The notes under the pieces were generated by a model. The model was not told the origin of the DNA. It saw only the letters and a program-made list of their open reading frames with translations, and did no database searches. This document shows, in pieces, positions 1,355 through 9,760 of a stretch of DNA of 20,000 nt. The DNA is taken from sequence record SRR20825019_488, one strand, 5' to 3'. The position numbers and the translations under genes are program-made. Each line of letters starts with the position of its first letter. Position 1 is the first letter of the stretch.

Positions 1355-1470
1355 TTCACCGGATCTGAAGCATAACGGCCTTCCAGGCTGAGACATCTTA
1401 ACGACACATGGGGTATGGCCGGCTGCGGTTTGCAACGGCCATCAAAAGACATACCGGACATCCGAGGGTG
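1355..1470 (+). ncRNA. Possible structured nrdJ leader (candidate nrdJ RNA motif)
   Basis: Long 5' leader with a hairpin ATGGCCG...CGGCCAT and an alternative GTATG/CATAC pairing just before the RBS. A conserved nrdJ RNA motif is known upstream of proteobacterial nrdJ genes. Not verified with a covariance model. Confidence 0.3.
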
Positions 1471-1473
1471 GCA

Positions 1474-3612
1474 ATGAACGCTAAAGCACAGGCAGTGATA
1501 ACAACAATTCCAATGCAGGAAGCTTCGCTGGACATCTGGAACAGCAAGTACCAACTCAAAACCAAGACCGGCGAACCCGTCGATAAGGACATCGAAGCAA
1601 CCTACGAGCGTGTTGCCACTGCCCTTGCCGAAGTGGAAAACAAAGCCAACCGCGCCAAGCACAAGAAAGAATTCGTCTGGGCCCTGCGCCACGGTGCCAT
1701 CCCCGCTGGCCGCATTACCTCCAACGCCGGTGCGGAAGCCCACAAACCAGCCACGTCCACCATCAACTGCACCGTGTCTGGCTCCGTTCAGGACTCCATG
1801 AACGACATCCTGGAAAAAAACCACGAAGCCGGCCTCACCCTCAAAGCCGGTTGTGGTATTGGTTATGAATTCTCCACCCTGCGCCCCCGCGGCGCCTACG
1901 TTGCCGGTGCGGGTGCCACCACCTCCGGCCCGCTGTCGTTCATGGATATCTTCGACCGCATGTGCTTCACCGTGTCTTCCGCCGGTGGCCGCCGTGGCGC
2001 GCAGATGGCCACCTTCGACGTACACCACCCGGACGTCATCGACTTCATCCAGGCCAAGCGTGAAGACGGCCGCCTGCGCCAGTTCAACCTGTCGCTGCTG
2101 ATCACCGAAGACTTCATCGAAGCCGTGCGCAACGGCGACGACTGGCACCTGTCGTTCCCCGTCACTGAAAAAGAAGTGGAAGACGAAGGCCTGGACCTGT
2201 CCGACGAAACCCAGTTCGTGTACCGCGACTTCCCGATCCAGAAGGGTTACGTGGTCAATGGCGAAGGCAAGGTTGCGTGCCGCATCTACCGCACCCTGAA
2301 AGCCCAGTTCATCTGGGACACCATCATGACCAGCACCTACGACTACGCCGAGCCAGGGTTCATCCTGATCGACAAGGTCAACCAGATGAACAACAACTGG
2401 TTCTGCGAAGACATCCGCGCCACCAACCCCTGTGGCGAACAGCCCCTGCCCCCGTACGGCAGCTGCCTGCTGGGCTCTGTGAACCTGACCATGTTCGTGG
2501 ACTACCCGTTCACCGACAAGGCCAGCTTCAACTATGAGAAGTACCGCAAAGTCGTGGGCATCTTTACCCGCATGCTGGACAACGTAGTGGAAATCAACGG
2601 CCTGCCGCTGGAAGAGCAGCGCCACGAAATTACCTACAAGCGCCGCCACGGCATGGGCATCCTCGGCCTGGGCTCCACCCTCGCCATGCTGCGTATGCCG
2701 TACGGCTCGTCCGAATCCGTGCAGTTTACCGAAGAAGTCGTACGTGAAATGGCCGTGGAAGGCTGGCGCCAGTCCCTGGCCCTGGCCGACGAAAAAGGCC
2801 CGGCGCCGATCATGAACGACGAGTTTGAAGTCACCCCCAAGATGCTGACCAAGTGCCCGCAGCTGTCCCAGGACGGCTACAAACTGGGCGACAAGCTCAA
2901 GGGCAAGGTACTGCACGCCAAGTACAGCAAGTACATGCAGCAGATCGCCGGCGTAGAGCCGGAGCTGATCGAGCAGCTGGCCGAGAAAGGTGGCCGCTTC
3001 ACGCACCACACCTCCATCGCGCCCACCGGCACCATCAGCCTGTCACTGGCCAACAACGCCAGTAACGGCATCGAGCCGAGCTTCTCGCACCACTACGCGC
3101 GTAACATCATTCGCGAAGGGCGCAAGACCAAGGAAAAAGTCGACGTATTCTCCTTCGAGCTGCTGGCTTACCGCCACCTGGTTAACCCCGGTGCCATGCC
3201 CTTCTCCGAAGAAGAAGACAAGCGCCTGCCCCATTACTTCACCACGTCTGAAGACGTGACGCCGGCGCAGCACGTGGACATCCAGGCCGCGGCCCAACTG
3301 TGGGTGGACTCGTCCATCTCCAAGACCGCCAACGTGCCCCAGGACTTCGCGTATCCGGACTTCAAAGACATCTACATGTACGCCTACGACAAGGGCCTGA
3401 AGGGTTGCACCACCTTCCGCTTTAACCCGGAAGCCTTCCAGGGCGTGCTGGTTCAGGAGAAAGACCTGGAAAACACACTGTACGAATTCACCCTGGACGA
3501 CGGCAGCAAGGTGACCCTCAAGGGCAACGAACAGGTGGAGTACGACGGTGAGCTCCATAACGCCGCCAACCTGTTTGATGCGCTTAAAGAAGGCACCTAC
3601 GGCAAATACTGA
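1474..3612 (+). CDS. nrdJa: Adenosylcobalamin-dependent (class II) ribonucleotide reductase, large subunit
   Basis: RNR motifs TINC, GGRRGAQM, ATNPCGEQ (thiyl Cys/Glu), GSCLLGS, IAPTGTIS, SISKT and KGCTTFR. No ATP cone. Start reassigned to ATG 1474 after RBS GAGGG (712 aa). Confidence 0.95.
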   Translation: MNAKAQAVITTIPMQEASLDIWNSKYQLKTKTGEPVDKDIEATYERVATALAEVENKANRAKHKKEFVWALRHGAIPAGRITSNAGAEAHKPATSTINCTVSGSVQDSMNDILEKNHEAGLTLKAGCGIGYEFSTLRPRGAYVAGAGATTSGPLSFMDIFDRMCFTVSSAGGRRGAQMATFDVHHPDVIDFIQAKREDGRLRQFNLSLLITEDFIEAVRNGDDWHLSFPVTEKEVEDEGLDLSDETQFVYRDFPIQKGYVVNGEGKVACRIYRTLKAQFIWDTIMTSTYDYAEPGFILIDKVNQMNNNWFCEDIRATNPCGEQPLPPYGSCLLGSVNLTMFVDYPFTDKASFNYEKYRKVVGIFTRMLDNVVEINGLPLEEQRHEITYKRRHGMGILGLGSTLAMLRMPYGSSESVQFTEEVVREMAVEGWRQSLALADEKGPAPIMNDEFEVTPKMLTKCPQLSQDGYKLGDKLKGKVLHAKYSKYMQQIAGVEPELIEQLAEKGGRFTHHTSIAPTGTISLSLANNASNGIEPSFSHHYARNIIREGRKTKEKVDVFSFELLAYRHLVNPGAMPFSEEEDKRLPHYFTTSEDVTPAQHVDIQAAAQLWVDSSISKTANVPQDFAYPDFKDIYMYAYDKGLKGCTTFRFNPEAFQGVLVQEKDLENTLYEFTLDDGSKVTLKGNEQVEYDGELHNAANLFDALKEGTYGKY

Positions 3613-4500: not shown

Positions 4501-4591
4501 GCGTTCTATATTTTTGCGGAATAACGACGCGCAGTAATGCCGAAGTCACGTTTTGGAATATTGAAGCGTTCTATCAAGTACGCAGTTAGGT
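4501..4591 (+). other. attI-like integron recombination site at the head of the array
   Basis: Core site GTTAGGT (4585-4591) is the exact complement of the first cassette's inverse core ACCTAAC (5990-5996). The upstream sequence is not palindromic (so not an attC) but has direct repeats GCGTTCTAT (4501, 4566), GGAATA and CGCAGT. Confidence 0.6.
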
Positions 4592-4642: not shown

Positions 4643-5584
4643 ATGCCAAATGTTGTAAGTATGATTAATTGGAAGGGTGGCGTGGGGAAAACATCACTTA
4701 CGCTACATCTCGCGTCAGGTTTAGCTACACGGCATAGTAAGCGCGTTCTCCTGATTGACCTGGATGCTCAGTGCAACCTATCTTTTTTAGCTGTCGGCCT
4801 CTCTCCTTATGTTGACCACACCTATAAGCGTAACGGGCCAACATTGAAAACGATTTTTGATGCATACTTTGATCGTAGTTCTCTGAATCCAAAAGATGTG
4901 ATCTTGGAGAAGCAGGTTCGTGCGCGTGCCGGAAAGATATACACCCAAGTCGGTATCATCTTGTCTCACCAAGAACTCACCTTGCTAGATATGAAGCTTG
5001 CTCGTGAAAAGAGGTCGGGGAAGGACCATAGAGAGGAAACCCGATTTGAGATAGAAAAGCTTTCTGTAATTAAAAATATAATAGACTCAGTTTCGGATGA
5101 ATACGATTATGTACTTCTAGATTGCCCACCAAACGTCAATCTGGTTACCCAAAATGCTTTTTTTGCAAGCGACTACTATGTTGTTCCGGCGATTCCAGAT
5201 TTTTTATCAACCGTTGGTATCTCTTTGATTACAAAATACATGGATCAGTTCAATAAAGATTATAGTTCGATGTGGAGTTATGCAGGGCTTCCTGGAAGTT
5301 ACAACGATACAAAGTTTGGTGGAATTATTTTCAACATGGTTGACGAGTACGGTGGTGGTCCTAAGGACGGTCATCAGCAAATCATTAACTCCACTGCGTC
5401 GCAACTTGGCAAAGGAGCAGTTTTTGATAAATATGTTACGGATGGTGATGGCATGTCAGCGGCAGCACAAGTAAATCTTCCTGTATTTGCTTTTGCTGAC
5501 CTACCACGATCCCAGCAAAACGCCCAAAAGCAAGCTACGTATCTTGAGGGCGTGGTCGATGAGTTTATCACGCGAATTATATAA
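4643..5584 (+). CDS. ParA/Soj-family ATPase (cassette 1, gene 1)
   Basis: Deviant Walker A KGGVGKTS, A' motif LLIDLDAQCNLS, Walker B YVLLDCPP. RBS AAGGAG. 313 aa. Confidence 0.9.
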   Translation: MPNVVSMINWKGGVGKTSLTLHLASGLATRHSKRVLLIDLDAQCNLSFLAVGLSPYVDHTYKRNGPTLKTIFDAYFDRSSLNPKDVILEKQVRARAGKIYTQVGIILSHQELTLLDMKLAREKRSGKDHREETRFEIEKLSVIKNIIDSVSDEYDYVLLDCPPNVNLVTQNAFFASDYYVVPAIPDFLSTVGISLITKYMDQFNKDYSSMWSYAGLPGSYNDTKFGGIIFNMVDEYGGGPKDGHQQIINSTASQLGKGAVFDKYVTDGDGMSAAAQVNLPVFAFADLPRSQQNAQKQATYLEGVVDEFITRII

Positions 5585-5596
5585 GGTGGCTAATCT

Positions 5597-5995
5597 ATGA
5601 AGACACATGAGCTAGCCAACCAACTTGAATTGTTGGCAAAATTACTCAGAAGTATGCCAGACACTGAGTTTAGTGAAGCAAGTGGAGAGCAAGTGCAGCA
5701 CTCTCTACAACTATTTGAGAGCAAAACTACTAAGCCTTCTTCTCGTGCCAACAAATCATTGCCAAAAGGAATAGAAGAAAGCCTCTCAGGGAAATCTCCG
5801 GCTGAAATTGAAAAATTCCTTAGTTCCGAGGATGAGAACTTTTCCCTTAATAATCTCTTAGAGTTTGCGGAGCGTTTAGGTATTTCTACTTCAAAGCGGC
5901 AAAGCAAAAGTGCAGTAATAAACCTCATTACTAGGCATTTTGAGGCAAAGCAAATGCATTCGATAATTCGCAACACTAAGCCCGATGATACCTAA
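5597..5995 (+). CDS. Hypothetical ParA partner with a C-terminal Rho_N/HeH-like helical motif (cassette 1, gene 2)
   Basis: 132 aa, 12 bp after parA with no attC between them. The stop TAA lies within the attC inverse core. 'SLNNLLEFAERLGISTSKRQSKSAVINLI' resembles helix-extension-helix nucleic-acid-binding modules. Confidence 0.7.
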   Translation: MKTHELANQLELLAKLLRSMPDTEFSEASGEQVQHSLQLFESKTTKPSSRANKSLPKGIEESLSGKSPAEIEKFLSSEDENFSLNNLLEFAERLGISTSKRQSKSAVINLITRHFEAKQMHSIIRNTKPDDT

Positions 5996-6073
5996 CCAAA
6001 ACAGGCACGGCGACGGCTACTCCACTGCGGCTGCGCCTCCATTCCGTAGCCGCGCGTGCTGTTGGCGTTAACG
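5990..6073 (+). repeat. attC site 1 (84 bp)
   Basis: ACCTAAC...GTTAACG with palindromic arms (CAGGCACG/CGTGCTG, CGGCTAC/GTAGCCG). Homologous to attC3 and attC4. Confidence 0.9.
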
Positions 6074-6095: not shown

Positions 6096-6743
6096 GTGTT
6101 GTCTCTGAAAGGTTTGATTGAAGAAGGTGCTGTAGCGAAACGTCTACTGAAGCCCGTTTTTTCGTGGGGTAGAGGCTCCTGGTTCAAAAGGCTTTTGGTT
6201 TTAAGTCTGTTTGGTCTGATTTTTATCACTGGTTACTACCTATTACTTCAGTCACTGCTTTCAGAGGTCAGAAAGCATGATGATCAGGTGTCAAAAGAAA
6301 GGAATCGGATTGTAGACGCAAGTCTCTACCAAGCAACGATTGGTTTTGCGGAGCTGTGTCTTAAACCGGCAACGATAGATAAAGAGAACGCCTCTTGGTA
6401 TTGCGAAAAGGCTTTGCAGTTGTATAAGAACAACAACAAAGGAACGCCACCTGAATTAAGGAATGAGATTGTCGAACGTAAGGCGTACGGGGCTATGGTT
6501 GCCGACATGGAATCTCAACTTAGAGGTATCAAGCTAGATCGACTTGATCAGACGTCCCCTGCTCTTGATTGGCTTGATCAGATATTGAGCAAAACTGGTA
6601 TGTTTTTAACATTGTCCTTGGCTCTCTTCGGTATTTTGGCTTTGGTGTACGGCCTATATTTACACCGTGACAATTCGGAATCTGATGAGCCAGAAGGGGG
6701 TTCCAGTAATTCTCAAAACACGTTAACAAGTGGGTCAAGCTGA
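6096..6743 (+). CDS. Hypothetical membrane protein with two TM segments (cassette 2)
   Basis: GTG start with AGGAG RBS. Hydrophobic stretches at about aa 33-54 and 167-187. The ORF reads into the attC. Confidence 0.7.
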   Translation: MLSLKGLIEEGAVAKRLLKPVFSWGRGSWFKRLLVLSLFGLIFITGYYLLLQSLLSEVRKHDDQVSKERNRIVDASLYQATIGFAELCLKPATIDKENASWYCEKALQLYKNNNKGTPPELRNEIVERKAYGAMVADMESQLRGIKLDRLDQTSPALDWLDQILSKTGMFLTLSLALFGILALVYGLYLHRDNSESDEPEGGSSNSQNTLTSGSS

Positions 6744-6798
6744 CCGGGGTAAGTCCAACAATGTGCTTCGCACGTTGCCCCTTCGCAAAGCGTTAGGC
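6721..6798 (+). repeat. attC site 2 (78 bp, different family, right arm degenerate)
   Basis: CGTTAAC (complement of the previous core GTTAACG)...GTTAGGC, with a central hairpin CAATGTGC-TTC-GCACGTTG. Confidence 0.75.
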
Positions 6799-6809
6799 AT
6801 GAGGGAGTT

Positions 6810-7301
6810 ATGGATAATTCTGACTACATAGCACTTGGATCGGCTGTAATTGCTTTGGCGGCTTTTGGAGTCGCCATATGGCAGGGACATATAAGCCGAC
6901 GGCACAATATTTTGTCAGTTAAGCCACGCTTTCATATTGATAAGAGCTATATCGAAGGCCTTCACTATCGGCTGGAGAGTCAGGGGCTAGGTCCTGGAGT
7001 AGTGAGAGAATTTTCCATTCTTGTGAATGAGCAAGAAATTACCGACCCTACAGAAGATCCATGGCCCGACATATTCAAAGCTCTAGGGGTAACCGGGATC
7101 AATTATGATTTTCACATCCCGGCGGTTGGATCAACCCACGCACCCAACACCTCAAGGCAGCTGCTAAGCGTTACCTTTGCCAATATTTCAACTGACCCCA
7201 AAGTGATTGAGACGATTGATCAAGCAATAAACTTTAGGATTAAATTCAAATCACTGTATGAGAATGAGATGTTCTCTTACAAAGGGGGGGAGGATGCCTA
7301 A
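6810..7301 (+). CDS. Hypothetical protein with an N-terminal membrane anchor (cassette 3)
   Basis: GGGAG RBS. N-terminal helix IALGSAVIALAAFGVAIW. The stop TAA lies inside GCCTAAC. Confidence 0.75.
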   Translation: MDNSDYIALGSAVIALAAFGVAIWQGHISRRHNILSVKPRFHIDKSYIEGLHYRLESQGLGPGVVREFSILVNEQEITDPTEDPWPDIFKALGVTGINYDFHIPAVGSTHAPNTSRQLLSVTFANISTDPKVIETIDQAINFRIKFKSLYENEMFSYKGGEDA

Positions 7302-7380
7302 CCATCGCAGGCACAGCGACGGCTTCTCCATTGCAGCTTCGCCTCCCCTCCATTCCAAAGCCGCGCATGCTGCAGGCGTT
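7296..7380 (+). repeat. attC site 3, interrupted at GTT by a MITE (original core resumes at 7549-7555)
   Basis: GCCTAAC CATCGCAGGCACAGCGACGGCTT...AAGCCGCGCATGCTGCAGGC GTT. Aligns with attC1 and attC4 apart from a 5-bp CCTCC duplication. Confidence 0.88.
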
Positions 7381-7548
7381 GAGGCTGTAGAAAATGTCCC
7401 GAGGTATTCTGGGGTGGCGCTCATACGTGAAATTTGAAGGATTTTTCGGAGCAAAATATGCCTCAGATTTTATGAAAAGGCGCTATTTTTAGTGCGAAAT
7501 TTAAACAACTCGAGGCTTCGAAATAACTCTGGGGTTTTCTACAGCCTC
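7381..7548. mobile_element. MITE / non-autonomous IS derivative (168 bp)
   Basis: Perfect 14-bp terminal inverted repeats GAGGCTGTAGAAAA (7381-7394) / TTTTCTACAGCCTC (7535-7548), flanked by a GTT direct repeat (7378-7380, 7549-7551). No internal gene. Confidence 0.85.
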
Positions 7549-7564
7549 GTTAGGCGAGAATCGA

Positions 7565-8059
7565 ATGAGCATACTAGCCACACATGCACAGGATTTCCTG
7601 AATGCCTACGAGATCTTAAGGGAGAGCAACGACTCGTTCGTTAAACAGAACATACCTGATGCAGATGAACGGTGTATCGGAAAAACTTTTGGTACTCGTC
7701 CTGCAATGGGTGTCGATATCGTTTGCTTGGCATTTTCGGTCGAATTGCATTTGAAGGAACTGCATCGGGTGTCTTATGGCAAGATCCCTCGAGGACACAA
7801 GATCATTGAGCTTTTCAAGGCTTTGTCGGGAGCAGAACAGGAAGGAGTCGTTTCTCACCATTCCATAGCACGATACGGTTGGGATTGCGCACAATTGAAA
7901 TGTGAGCTACTTGCCATCAGCGACAGTTTCGAAAAGTGGAGATACGCCTACGAGAGCACAGCCCTCCGGTACAACATTTATTTCGCGAAGGCTCTAATAG
8001 AGGCTCTGCAATTCGTAGCAGCAAGAAAAGGAGGCGTGCATGAGGCAAGGCGCACCTAG
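7565..8059 (+). CDS. HEPN-like domain protein (cassette 4)
   Basis: Motif pattern 'LAFSVELHLK...RGHKIIELFKAL...FEKWRYAYE' is typical of HEPN-fold proteins. The stop TAG lies in the inverse core position. Confidence 0.7.
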   Translation: MSILATHAQDFLNAYEILRESNDSFVKQNIPDADERCIGKTFGTRPAMGVDIVCLAFSVELHLKELHRVSYGKIPRGHKIIELFKALSGAEQEGVVSHHSIARYGWDCAQLKCELLAISDSFEKWRYAYESTALRYNIYFAKALIEALQFVAARKGGVHEARRT

Positions 8060-8137
8060 CAAGCGCAGACATCGCGACGGCTTTTTCATTGCGGCTTCGC
8101 CTTCATTTCAAAGCCGCGCATGCTGCGGTCGTTATAT
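8054..8137 (+). repeat. attC site 4 (84 bp, inverse core mutated)
   Basis: ACCTAGC...GTTATAT. The body is homologous to attC1 and attC3. AAC>AGC change in the inverse core. Confidence 0.85.
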
Positions 8138-8153
8138 TTTACAGGGAGGTTGA

Positions 8154-8714
8154 ATGGACACCCAGCAGTTACTTGAGGCTGCGCAGACAATCGACATTCT
8201 TCGATCAATGTTCGCCGATGATAAAAACGAATGGTTGCCGGTCATTGCAGCAATTGGGGGTGCATTCGTAGGCGGTATCTCGACCTTCGTCCCTAGCTAT
8301 CTTCTGGAAAAGAGGAAGTTAAAGCAGGAGGCGCGCTCCGTAGAAACCGCCCTTGTTTCCGAAGTATCAGCCTTGCTCGAGGTTATTGAGCATCGAAGGT
8401 ACGTCTACGGATTGGAGGAGTCGGTTCACTATCTCAAGCAGAATCCTGGTAAGAAAAAGGTTTTTGCGACAAAAATACCTGAGCACTACTCACGTATTTA
8501 TCAAGAGCACATCTCCAAGATTGGTCTGCTTCACCCCGACCTGTCTGCAAAAATCATCCGGTTTCATCAACTGATAGATTCGGGAGTCCAAGACATCTCT
8601 ACAGGAGGCTTTATCGCAGAAACTGGTGGTGGCATTGAAGCTTTCGAAGAGTTACTCGAAATATTCTATTCGGCAGTGAAGATCGGCCGAGAGATTGTCG
8701 GAACAGAAATATAA
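8154..8714 (+). CDS. Hypothetical protein with a single TM segment (cassette 5)
   Basis: GGGAGG RBS. Hydrophobic WLPVIAAIGGAFVGGISTFV segment followed by a helical domain. The stop TAA lies within ATATAAC. Confidence 0.75.
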   Translation: MDTQQLLEAAQTIDILRSMFADDKNEWLPVIAAIGGAFVGGISTFVPSYLLEKRKLKQEARSVETALVSEVSALLEVIEHRRYVYGLEESVHYLKQNPGKKKVFATKIPEHYSRIYQEHISKIGLLHPDLSAKIIRFHQLIDSGVQDISTGGFIAETGGGIEAFEELLEIFYSAVKIGREIVGTEI

Positions 8715-8769
8715 CCAGTCGCTGTAGTACGCGGTGCACTTACCCCAGTGAGAGAGGCTGCCGTTGATG
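8709..8769 (+). repeat. Truncated/degenerate attC site 5
   Basis: ATATAAC (8709-8715) is the exact complement of the preceding core GTTATAT and is followed by CAGTCGCTGTAG. The right arm is not recognisable. Possible core GTTGATG at 8763-8769. Confidence 0.5.
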
Positions 8770-9330
8770 GACGAAGAGGAATCCCTAAACAGAGCAATTC
8801 ACGAAGATGTGAAGCTCTACCAATACAACCCCAACTGGCCAGCAATGTTCCAGGATGAGCGGGACCGCCTCCTTCATTTGTTTCCGGGTGAGTTTCTGGC
8901 GATCGAACATATCGGCAGCACCGCAGTACCCGGCCTATCGGCCAAGCCGATCATCGATATCCTGGCGGGGGTAGATTCGATGTCACGGGCCGATGAGTTA
9001 ATGGAACCGTTGTGCCAGTCAAAATACGCTACCTCAATGGATTTCAATGCCTCGTTAGTGGATCGGCGTTGGCTTATGCGATGGGCCGAGGGGCGCAGGA
9101 CACATCACCTGCATCTTATGGTGTTCGGTAGTCAGGAGTGGGATCGGCGCCTGGCCTTTCGGAACATACTTCGTGCCAATACGGAACTGGCACAACGGTA
9201 TGAGCAAAATAAGCGGATGTGGGTGGCGGAATTCCGTTCGGATAGAGAGGCCTATACTGCGGCTAAAGCAGATTTTATACGGGAGGCATTGAACCACTGC
9301 AACCCAGCTTCAGGACACAAGATCAGATGA
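8767..9330 (+). CDS. GrpB family protein (UPF0157, nucleotidyltransferase-like)
   Basis: YNPNWPAMF...IEHIGSTAVPGLSAKPIIDI...HHLHL...FRNILR...YTAAKADFI signature. Confidence 0.9.
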   Translation: MDEEESLNRAIHEDVKLYQYNPNWPAMFQDERDRLLHLFPGEFLAIEHIGSTAVPGLSAKPIIDILAGVDSMSRADELMEPLCQSKYATSMDFNASLVDRRWLMRWAEGRRTHHLHLMVFGSQEWDRRLAFRNILRANTELAQRYEQNKRMWVAEFRSDREAYTAAKADFIREALNHCNPASGHKIR

Positions 9331-9680
9331 GCGAATTCGTCGATAACCTCAATGATGTATTTTGCCAGTTCGGCCCGGTTTCCGTTCGGCGTATGTTCGG
9401 TGGCTATGGTGTGTACCACGATGGCGTGATGTTTGGCCTTGTTGCGGATGATGTTCTGTATCTGAAGGTCGATGGGGAATCGATGGGGCGGTTTACAGAG
9501 CTGGATTTGGAGCCGTTCGAATACGAGAAAAATGGCGCTAAGATTAAGATGTCTTACTACATGGCACCGGAGAGCATTTTCGAGGATTCTGAAGAGGCAA
9601 AAGAATGGGCAGAGCTGGCATTCAATGCGGCGCTCCGGGCCAGGAAACCAGCAGCAAGAACCAAGGCAAACAAGAAATGA
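9327..9680 (+). CDS. TfoX/Sxy N-terminal domain protein
   Basis: RRMFGGYGVY-DGVMFGLV-DDVLYLKVD...PFEY...MSYY. ATGA overlap with grpB. Confidence 0.88.
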   Translation: MSEFVDNLNDVFCQFGPVSVRRMFGGYGVYHDGVMFGLVADDVLYLKVDGESMGRFTELDLEPFEYEKNGAKIKMSYYMAPESIFEDSEEAKEWAELAFNAALRARKPAARTKANKK

Positions 9681-9760
9681 CCGCCTACGTAATCGTCCAT
9701 GGACTTACCCCGGTACAGTAGGCGCTCCTAGCCTTTGATCGGAGCATAAGAGGAATTTTC

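Follow-up and report, generated by a model that had tools for sequence, protein, structure and literature searches.

Two kinds of mobile element are named as homing to attC, the recombination site of integron gene cassettes: insertion sequences (ISs) of the IS1111-attC group and group IIC-attC introns, both of which insert near the attC 5′ end in antisense orientation (PMC3001079, in the part of its text available to us). The available parts of two later papers, of 2024 and 2025, cite the IS1111 work only (PMC11089894, PMC12444791). Here we describe an insertion of another kind. In a stretch of 20,000 nucleotides from sequence record SRR20825019_488, hereafter called the window, positions 7381-7548 are a miniature inverted-repeat transposable element (MITE) that splits an attC site at its crossover triplet GTT. 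Very probably it descends, by internal deletion, from a clade of attC-targeting ISs of the IS1182 family, which carry a DDE transposase. In anatomy the element is an ordinary MITE; what is unusual is a large clade of DDE ISs that homes, in one orientation, to the integron crossover triplet.

ISs of the IS1111-attC group have a DEDD transposase and subterminal repeats, and are not known to make a target duplication. The likeness to this group lies in ISs that home to attC in a fixed orientation, a trait found in a monophyletic subset of a larger IS family (as far as the available descriptions go). In contrast to it, the clade described here has a DDE transposase, terminal repeats and a 3-bp duplication. 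The insertion point also differs: the 3′ R′ crossover triplet, with the transposase in sense in 16 of 16 full-length elements, instead of antisense insertion near the attC 5′ end (PMC3001079, in part). Membership in the IS1111-attC group is thus ruled out by the IS1182-type DDE partner, the terminal repeats, the duplication, the insertion at the R′ GTT and the sense transposase. Group IIC-attC introns are likewise mobile, target attC and can alter expression of the downstream cassette (PMC3001079, in part); they differ in being antisense retroelements, made of a ribozyme and a reverse transcriptase and, in the available text, devoid of inverted repeats, duplication and transposase.

The IS1182 family itself offers a closer comparison. 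Its members, as defined in ISfinder, are about 1.3-1.95 kb long and have terminal repeats. One example, ISMno38 (pMNOD01), has in common with the present clade the DUF772 and DDE_Tnp_1_6 domains, a size of 1.3-1.9 kb and terminal repeats starting with GAG, but its transposase is 27.5% identical and the one copy examined is flanked on both sides by CTAG, not GTT. No attC association of this family, ISMno38 included, was found in the literature searched, and we know of none. The same literature contains no attC-targeter of IS1182 type or MITE type; subscription journals, ISfinder and supplementary files lay outside the search, and an earlier description of an IS1182 clade homing to attC may exist. 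MITEs associated with integrons, namely those of the MITE-flanked class 1 integrons of Acinetobacter and of the integron mobilization unit, stand on either side of whole integrons or cassettes, which they mobilise as composite units. They resemble the window element in being short and non-autonomous with terminal repeats (in the descriptions available), and to our knowledge none of these kinds has been reported inside the attC crossover triplet.

The terminal arms of the window element are complementary at 14 of 14 nt (100%), by direct reading and by repeat finding, and lie 140 nt apart, which sets the length of the element at 168 bp (Table 1). With up to two mismatches allowed, the 14-mer arm occurs at two places in the whole window, both of them element ends (shuffled sequences predict 0.10 occurrences, and 1 of 200 reached two). 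The strand folds as a long hairpin (-29.7 kcal/mol, z = -4.6, equalled by 0 of 200 shuffles), in agreement with an imperfect inward extension of the terminal repeats. The first-pass annotation, made from the letters alone, had proposed a 168-bp MITE placed exactly at the attC GTT, perfect 14-bp repeats extending imperfectly inward, and restoration of a canonical attC upon its removal. All of this is borne out: GTT stands at 7378-7380 and at 7549-7551, and excision of the element with one GTT makes 7378-7380 contiguous with the GTTAGGC core.

The element contains no open reading frame (ORF) of 60 amino acids (aa) or more lying wholly within it, and has no match as DNA on plasmids. Rfam at gathering thresholds gave 0 matches across the window. 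A promoter and terminator consensus scan of 7200-7700 gave 0 and 0, so that an outward promoter from the element is without support. Short, ORF-less, bounded by terminal inverted repeats and by a GTT/GTT duplication, the element has the features of a MITE, and its ends are those of autonomous transposase-coding elements, found in other genomes and in a sequencing run of a close relative (X3, below). Other identities were considered and rejected. The ends of the element are inverted repeats bounded by direct GTTs, with no bounding AAC...GTT core pair, which makes an integron gene cassette very improbable; terminal repeats with a duplication, together with a DDE partner, exclude an element of REP/RAYT or IS200/IS605 type; and a structured RNA is excluded by the absence of Rfam matches and by interiors that fall into 32 unrelated clusters.

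Short copies were searched for in one genome per species with the pattern GGCTGTAGAAAA-N125-155-TTTTCTACAGCC, which consists of the 12-nt repeat cores and leaves the flanks free. The pattern occurs at 120 or more loci in genome contigs. Since the same ends recur at so many loci, the window element is not a chance hairpin, and the first-pass proposal of a non-autonomous, multi-copy element is upheld. We tallied 129 copies among the matches listed and the window copy, 130 in all, of which 123 entered the flank logo. According to record titles, hosts among the matches listed are Marinobacter, Microbulbifer, Oceanospirillum, Marinospirillum, Paraglaciecola and Halomonas, many betaproteobacterial metagenome-assembled genomes (MAGs), a few Nitrospira/Nitrospiraceae MAGs and one Anaerolineae MAG. 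Marinobacter genomes with the pattern carry one to three copies each. One further copy (L186:907-1059, flanks AAC/AAC, i.e. GTT/GTT on the other strand) was observed in a 46-kb IMG/VR contig classed as viral.

The flanks of these copies define the target. GTT stands on both sides in 114 of 130 copies, and on one side with a 1-nt variant on the other in 13. The 3-bp flanks are identical in 117 of the 130, including three non-GTT cases: AAT in L039 (1366-1548), which lies in a Bacteroidales MAG, TTC in L058 (6288-6445) and TTT in L112 (7639-7804). The flank logo, built from n = 123, shows C at -4 in 114 copies, A at +4 in 110, G at +5 in 84 and at +6 in 71, and at +7 either C (53) or T (40). The target consensus C-GTT-AGG-Y is the consensus of the attC R′ box, in accordance with the attC targeting proposed at first pass. 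Even the off-target sequences CTTC-GGGC, CTTT-TGGT and AAAT-AGCA resemble C-GTT-AGGY (as NNT-AGGY). The same family settles the length of the duplication, for which CGTT had been left as an alternative reading: in 9 of 123 copies a base other than C precedes the left GTT and the element still ends in C, and the AAT/AAT flanks of L039 are preceded by differing bases. Both observations favour a duplication of 3 bp, GTT, over one of 4 bp.

We then asked how often the left flank has the architecture of an attC, using a crude rule (AAC, spacer, L″/L′ pairing, spacer, GTT). With at most one L-box mismatch, 80 of 113 testable copies satisfied the rule, compared with 282 of 2000 GTT sites picked at random; when the L box had to be exact, the counts were 43/113 and 42/2000. 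CGTTAG sites of the same array-rich loci gave 61/199 and 22/199, respectively. By eye, many of the misses are attCs with a degenerate R″ or tandem elements, and all of 13 left flanks inspected, rule hits and misses together, are attC-like, some with a degenerate R″. This rule is the only detector reported as a result. Several others discriminated poorly and were set aside, not as evidence of absence: whole-hairpin energy, local inverted-repeat alignment, basal-stem energy (51 of 113 copies at or below the 5th percentile of controls) and exact R″/R′ complementarity (33 of 118 copies and about 10% of controls), a test that arrays defeat, since their R′ is a hybrid formed with the next cassette. 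Paralogy of flanks by short BLAST was also set aside, having missed even the window's own paralogous attCs. An integron integrase above the TIGR02249 cut-off is encoded in 5 of 5 host genomes tested, as opposed to 0 of 14 controls. In G002, a complete genome, about 13 kb separate the integrase gene from two L026 MITEs, and their relative orientation is as expected.

Starting from unpaired repeat ends at these loci, we found elements of 1.7-1.8 kb that have the same tips and code for proteins of 514-543 aa; over the whole set, full-length elements with the same ~15-bp tips measure 1573-1854 bp. The transposase bounded by the same repeats that the first-pass annotation had called for is thus found, in other genomes. 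Two partner transposases (L064 and L002) match Pfam DDE_Tnp_1_6, DUF772 and DDE_Tnp_1 at the domain level. With the NCBIfam model NF033551 (IS1182), whose cut-off is 270 bits, the L064 protein scores 281 bits and the L002 protein 260, just below. Together with the lengths and terminal repeats expected of the family, this places the partners in the IS1182 family; the earlier guess of a DDE-type, possibly IS1182-like partner distinct from IS1111 was therefore correct.

A search for the transposase covered five host genomes and a sample of 400 genomes from the class. Relatives occur in 21 of the 400, including two flagged as unpublished, whose loci were excluded from all other counts. The consensus tip of 15 full-length ISs found by protein search is GAGGCTGTAGAAAAA. 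Among 27 candidate repeat pairs spaced by 1.5-2.1 kb, GTT/GTT flanks match in 16, and the remaining 11 mostly combine, by chance, ends that belong to different copies. The longest ORF of each of the 16 is on the attC top strand, that is, in the cassette direction, and identity to the query transposase goes down to ~41%. Single ends of relatives at 38-39% identity also adjoin GTTAG or GTTGG. Members of this DDE transposase family are deeply diverged and still agree in their ends, their target consensus, the 3-bp duplication and the orientation. The family is large: 6699 of 8000 candidates scored are homologues with E <= 1e-50, and the 120 best homologues listed bear only generic database names: ‘IS1182 family transposase’, ‘IS4 family transposase’, ‘transposase’ or ‘hypothetical protein’. 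Against plasmids, the transposase found seven records, none close, the best at 41-44% identity on Pseudoalteromonas replicons.

One element of 663 bp (L109:1004-1666), with GTT on both sides, has both ends of the full-length IS of Oceanospirillum maris and probably represents a deletion intermediate between IS and MITE. A 582-bp element of intermediate size with the same left tip was also observed (L044:2494-3075).

Several points weigh against a derivation of the window element from these ISs. All of the evidence is computational. Neither a transposase nor a second MITE copy was found within the 20-kb window, the partner being known from other genomes, and the interior of the window MITE shows no match to the 15 sampled full-length ISs beyond the terminal 14-21 nt. 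The attC rule, which is not a proper attC model, leaves 33 of the 113 testable insertion sites unrecognised. Within sequence clusters, the MITEs keep one orientation relative to attC despite their symmetrical repeats (22:1, 18:0, 8:0, 5:0 three times, 4:0, 3:0, and 2:0 three times). Finally, cluster 0 is made of two subfamilies (17:15 copies), the window copy with L082 and the Oceanospirillum/Marinospirillum copies on one side and the Marinobacter/Halomonas copies on the other. Each is fixed in orientation, and they have ~80 nt of interior in common (72-78% identity), yet these interiors are mutually inverted relative to attC. At the closest level, the window MITE subfamily consists of the window copy, L082 and L155.

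If the window MITE is a deleted member of the IS1182-type clade, as is very probable, its insertion most likely proceeded as follows. The transposase would recognise the ~15-bp ends GAGGCTGTAGAAAAA and make a 3-bp staggered cut in the R′ core of attC (C-GTT-AGGY), so that GTT, the crossover point of the integrase IntI, is duplicated. Insertion is orientation-specific, the transposase gene of full-length elements pointing in the cassette direction. The target would be read as a double-stranded, linear and asymmetric motif similar to the tip of the element itself. Three observations suggest this linear reading: the off-target sites resemble C-GTT-AGGY, tandem elements use GTT-GAGGC, and the tip (G)AGGC repeats the R′ core. 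Because of this last likeness, the left junction GTT(G)AGGC regenerates an R′-like core, and the right junction is GTTAGGC. Tandem elements separated by exactly GTT were observed at four loci (L025:528-707, L117:698-888, L095:7397-7580 and L004:6-190), from which it seems that the GTT-GAGGC junction of a resident copy can be reused as a target. IntI might still use the interrupted attC at either GTT, in which case the MITE would travel with a neighbouring cassette. The window copy itself would be mobile only if the genome that bears it encodes the cognate transposase.

Bottom-strand folds predict pairing of R″ with either junction, the MITE being extruded as a hairpin of its own when the right junction is used; the energies of these folds are no better than those of shuffled sequences, as is the case for intact attCs. 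Exchange of flanks was searched for among the 130 copies and three pairs were found. L032 and L074 have MITEs at a similarity of 0.95 and are 94-100% identical over at least 650 bp downstream, with upstream sequences unrelated right up to GTT. L019 and L043, from one genome, have the same MITE and the same downstream flank (53 nt available) behind different upstream attCs. L031 and L084, from two species-level genomes, show 100% identity across the MITE and 700 bp or more of upstream sequence (92% in the first 50-nt bin), and divergence begins right after GTTA.

These three pairs fit the action of IntI at either GTT, and homologous recombination between copies or repeated insertion explains them equally. 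Hitch-hiking of the MITE with cassettes is for this reason plausible but open. We give only slightly less than an even chance to the alternative that the common flanks arose by RecA-dependent recombination between co-oriented MITE copies of one array, or by independent insertions beside the same cassette. MITE copies provide 160-170 bp of near-identical sequence in fixed orientation, and an exchange between two of them would leave the left flank of the first beside the right flank of the second, with breakpoints that appear at the MITE borders. Every attC being a target, repeated insertion is plausible as well, and recombination between IS copies inside a chromosomal integron has been described (PMC11023631, in its available part). 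On the other hand, identity that extends up to GTT, upstream in L031/L084 and downstream in L032/L074, fits an attC × attC exchange equally, and folding predicts that the R box is still formed with either GTT.

A wider proposal, that the IS1182-type clade constitutes a third class of attC-homing elements, compatible with integrons, is tentative and in our judgement rather doubtful. It would turn one crossover site into two usable ones (GTT-GAGGC and GTT-AGGC), so that copies could spread both by transposition and by IntI-mediated transfer with either cassette. If true, these two modes of movement would explain near-identical ends across Gamma- and Betaproteobacteria and across Nitrospira and Anaerolineae MAGs, and the IS transposase would read like a cassette gene from the promoter Pc.

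A different view of the target is that what the transposase reads is not double-stranded R′ but attC folded into a single-stranded hairpin, the form recognised by IntI and by group IIC-attC introns. This would account for the excess of full attC architecture at occupied sites over the CGTTAG sites of the same loci (80/113 versus 61/199, as given above), and strand-specific recognition would entail the strict orientation seen in 16 of 16 long elements. We consider it unlikely. The three off-target sites resemble the linear core, no attC having been noted there (the attC rule was not applied to them), and tandem insertions occur at GTT-GAGGC, a mimic of that core. For the orientation an asymmetric linear motif suffices, and DDE transposases of IS5/IS1182 type act on double-stranded DNA.

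Least probable by far is that the element is an ORF-less, hairpin-shaped integron cassette which IntI inserts and excises at G|TT, the GTTs being cassette boundaries: any cassette is bounded by G|TT...G|TT, and the single orientation within clusters, the tandem copies spaced by exactly GTT (at the L025, L117, L095 and L004 loci) and the flank exchanges precisely at either GTT would all follow, but the element has no attC of its own, its ends being inverted repeats with direct GTTs and not an AAC...GTT inverted core, the same ends bound elements of 1.6-1.9 kb that code for a DDE transposase, three copies have identical non-GTT duplications (AAT, TTC, TTT) such as a staggered transposase cut gives, and a conserved ~15-bp tip around 32 unrelated interior clusters is typical of recognition of ends by a transposase.

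Sequencing runs of close relatives and other Marinobacter genomes inform on the state of the site with and without the element. In run X5, the attC3-MITE and MITE-cassette junctions are the same as in the window, at 99% identity or more (attC3 is the interrupted site). In run X3, one contig spans 7393-9500 free of gaps with 72 differences and begins inside the left repeat; the X3 organism therefore has the same MITE before the same cassette. Another X3 contig, of 1837 letters, starts with window 7376-7394 (GCGTT and the repeat) and ends with 7531-7551 (the repeat and GTT). At a word depth of 170.6, compared with 11.1 for the 7393-9500 contig (word depth does not measure copy number), it presents the picture of a multi-copy full-length IS with common GTT flanks. 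Other X3 contigs show an attC4-like site followed, directly after GTT, by the IS left end, and run X4 has an attC3-like site whose GTT leads directly into a different cassette. Contig cover of the four runs leaves some of the window, e.g. 6170-7241, uncovered in all four.

The first-pass annotation had suggested that an empty-site allele be looked for in relatives, and the outcome is divided. In another Marinobacter genome (L154), the homologue of the downstream cassette (69% nucleotide identity) starts with GTTAGGCGAGA directly after a different attC, with no MITE; it follows that the MITE was inserted at the boundary of the cassette and does not belong to it. A direct empty allele, with the same upstream cassette, attC3 and downstream cassette and no MITE, was not found, and the upstream ORF has no nucleotide homologue in 191 genomes of the genus.

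Integron cassette arrays rank among the chief routes by which genes are exchanged, and an array can be silenced, activated, split or rearranged by an element homing to attC. A 2024 survey of cassettes assigned 49% of cassette-associated transposases to ‘IS5’ by best ISfinder match and, in its available text, gives no explanation by targeting (PMC11089894). Annotation pipelines will count transposases of the present kind as cassette genes, and arrays gain portable repeats able to drive rearrangement. A DDE transposase with an oriented target of 8-10 bp is also a candidate for use in site-specific insertion, and offers a tractable model of the evolution of such a specificity.

The window contains three attC sites of one type, the middle of which, attC3, is split by the 168-bp element. 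This host site has the features of an attC: an imperfect palindrome, AAC/GTT cores and paralogues along the array. Its R″ box (GCCTAAC) overlaps the stop codon of the upstream cassette ORF. The same attC type occurs, at 80-89% identity, in 164 of 191 genomes of the genus of G005 (record title: Marinobacter oulmenensis), and many of these matches stop exactly at GTT. The source of the window is thus probably Marinobacter or a near relative. Pfam scans of the window ORFs found no integrase gene, and the array is thus an attC cluster without a neighbouring intI. Genes for a ribonucleotide reductase (1408-3612) and a ParA-like protein (4643-5584) are located on its 5′ side. The two cassette ORFs on either side of the MITE match 0 families in Pfam, NCBIfam and PADLOC, and the ‘HEPN’ label given at first pass to the downstream one is not confirmed.

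Table 1. Positions in the window of the MITE, the interrupted attC and the adjoining cassette features
Feature	Coordinates	Strand	Basis or remark
168-bp MITE	7381-7548	+	no transposase ORF; subfamily relatives L082, L155
Left terminal inverted repeat, GAGGCTGTAGAAAA	7381-7394	+	repeat finding
Right terminal inverted repeat, TTTTCTACAGCCTC	7535-7548	-	repeat finding
Left GTT of the 3-bp target duplication (G|TT crossover triplet of R′)	7378-7380	+	direct reading
Right GTT (7549-7551) with AGGC: R′ core GTTAGGC, start of the next cassette	7549-7555	+	direct reading
attC3, 5′ part: R″ GCCTAAC (7296-7302), then L boxes, ending with the left GTT	7296-7380	+	homologues; bottom-strand folds
Upstream cassette ORF, 163 aa, owner of attC3	6810-7301	+	no family match
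Downstream cassette ORF, 164 aa	7565-8059	+	no family match; nucleotide homologue in L154, 69% identity
attC1, uninterrupted paralogue, empty-site reference within the window	5990-6073	+	sequence comparison
attC4, uninterrupted paralogue, GTT at 8131-8133	8054-8137	+	sequence comparison

Some other features of the window were noted. The ParA-like ATPase (AAA_31, E = 2.8e-35) and the 132-aa ORF behind it form a two-gene unit (4643-5995) that ends at attC1; the ORF has a weak RiboL-PSP HEPN match (E = 0.0013), below the cut-off. A possible cassette start, GTTAGGT, is found at 4585-4591, with no integrase gene upstream. Outside the array, a 353-aa ORF at 14669-15730 matches Pfam Beta-lactamase2 (class A family, E = 1.3e-44) and adjoins a DUF418/acyltransferase gene. 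A second kind of attC-like sequence is present at 6745-6800, 8712-8769 and 9690-9740. Its segment 8712-8733 (TATAACCAGTCGCTGTAGTACG) is similar to the beginning of the attC that precedes the L154 cassette, and the motif GGACTTACCCCGG or its complement is present at three cassette ends.
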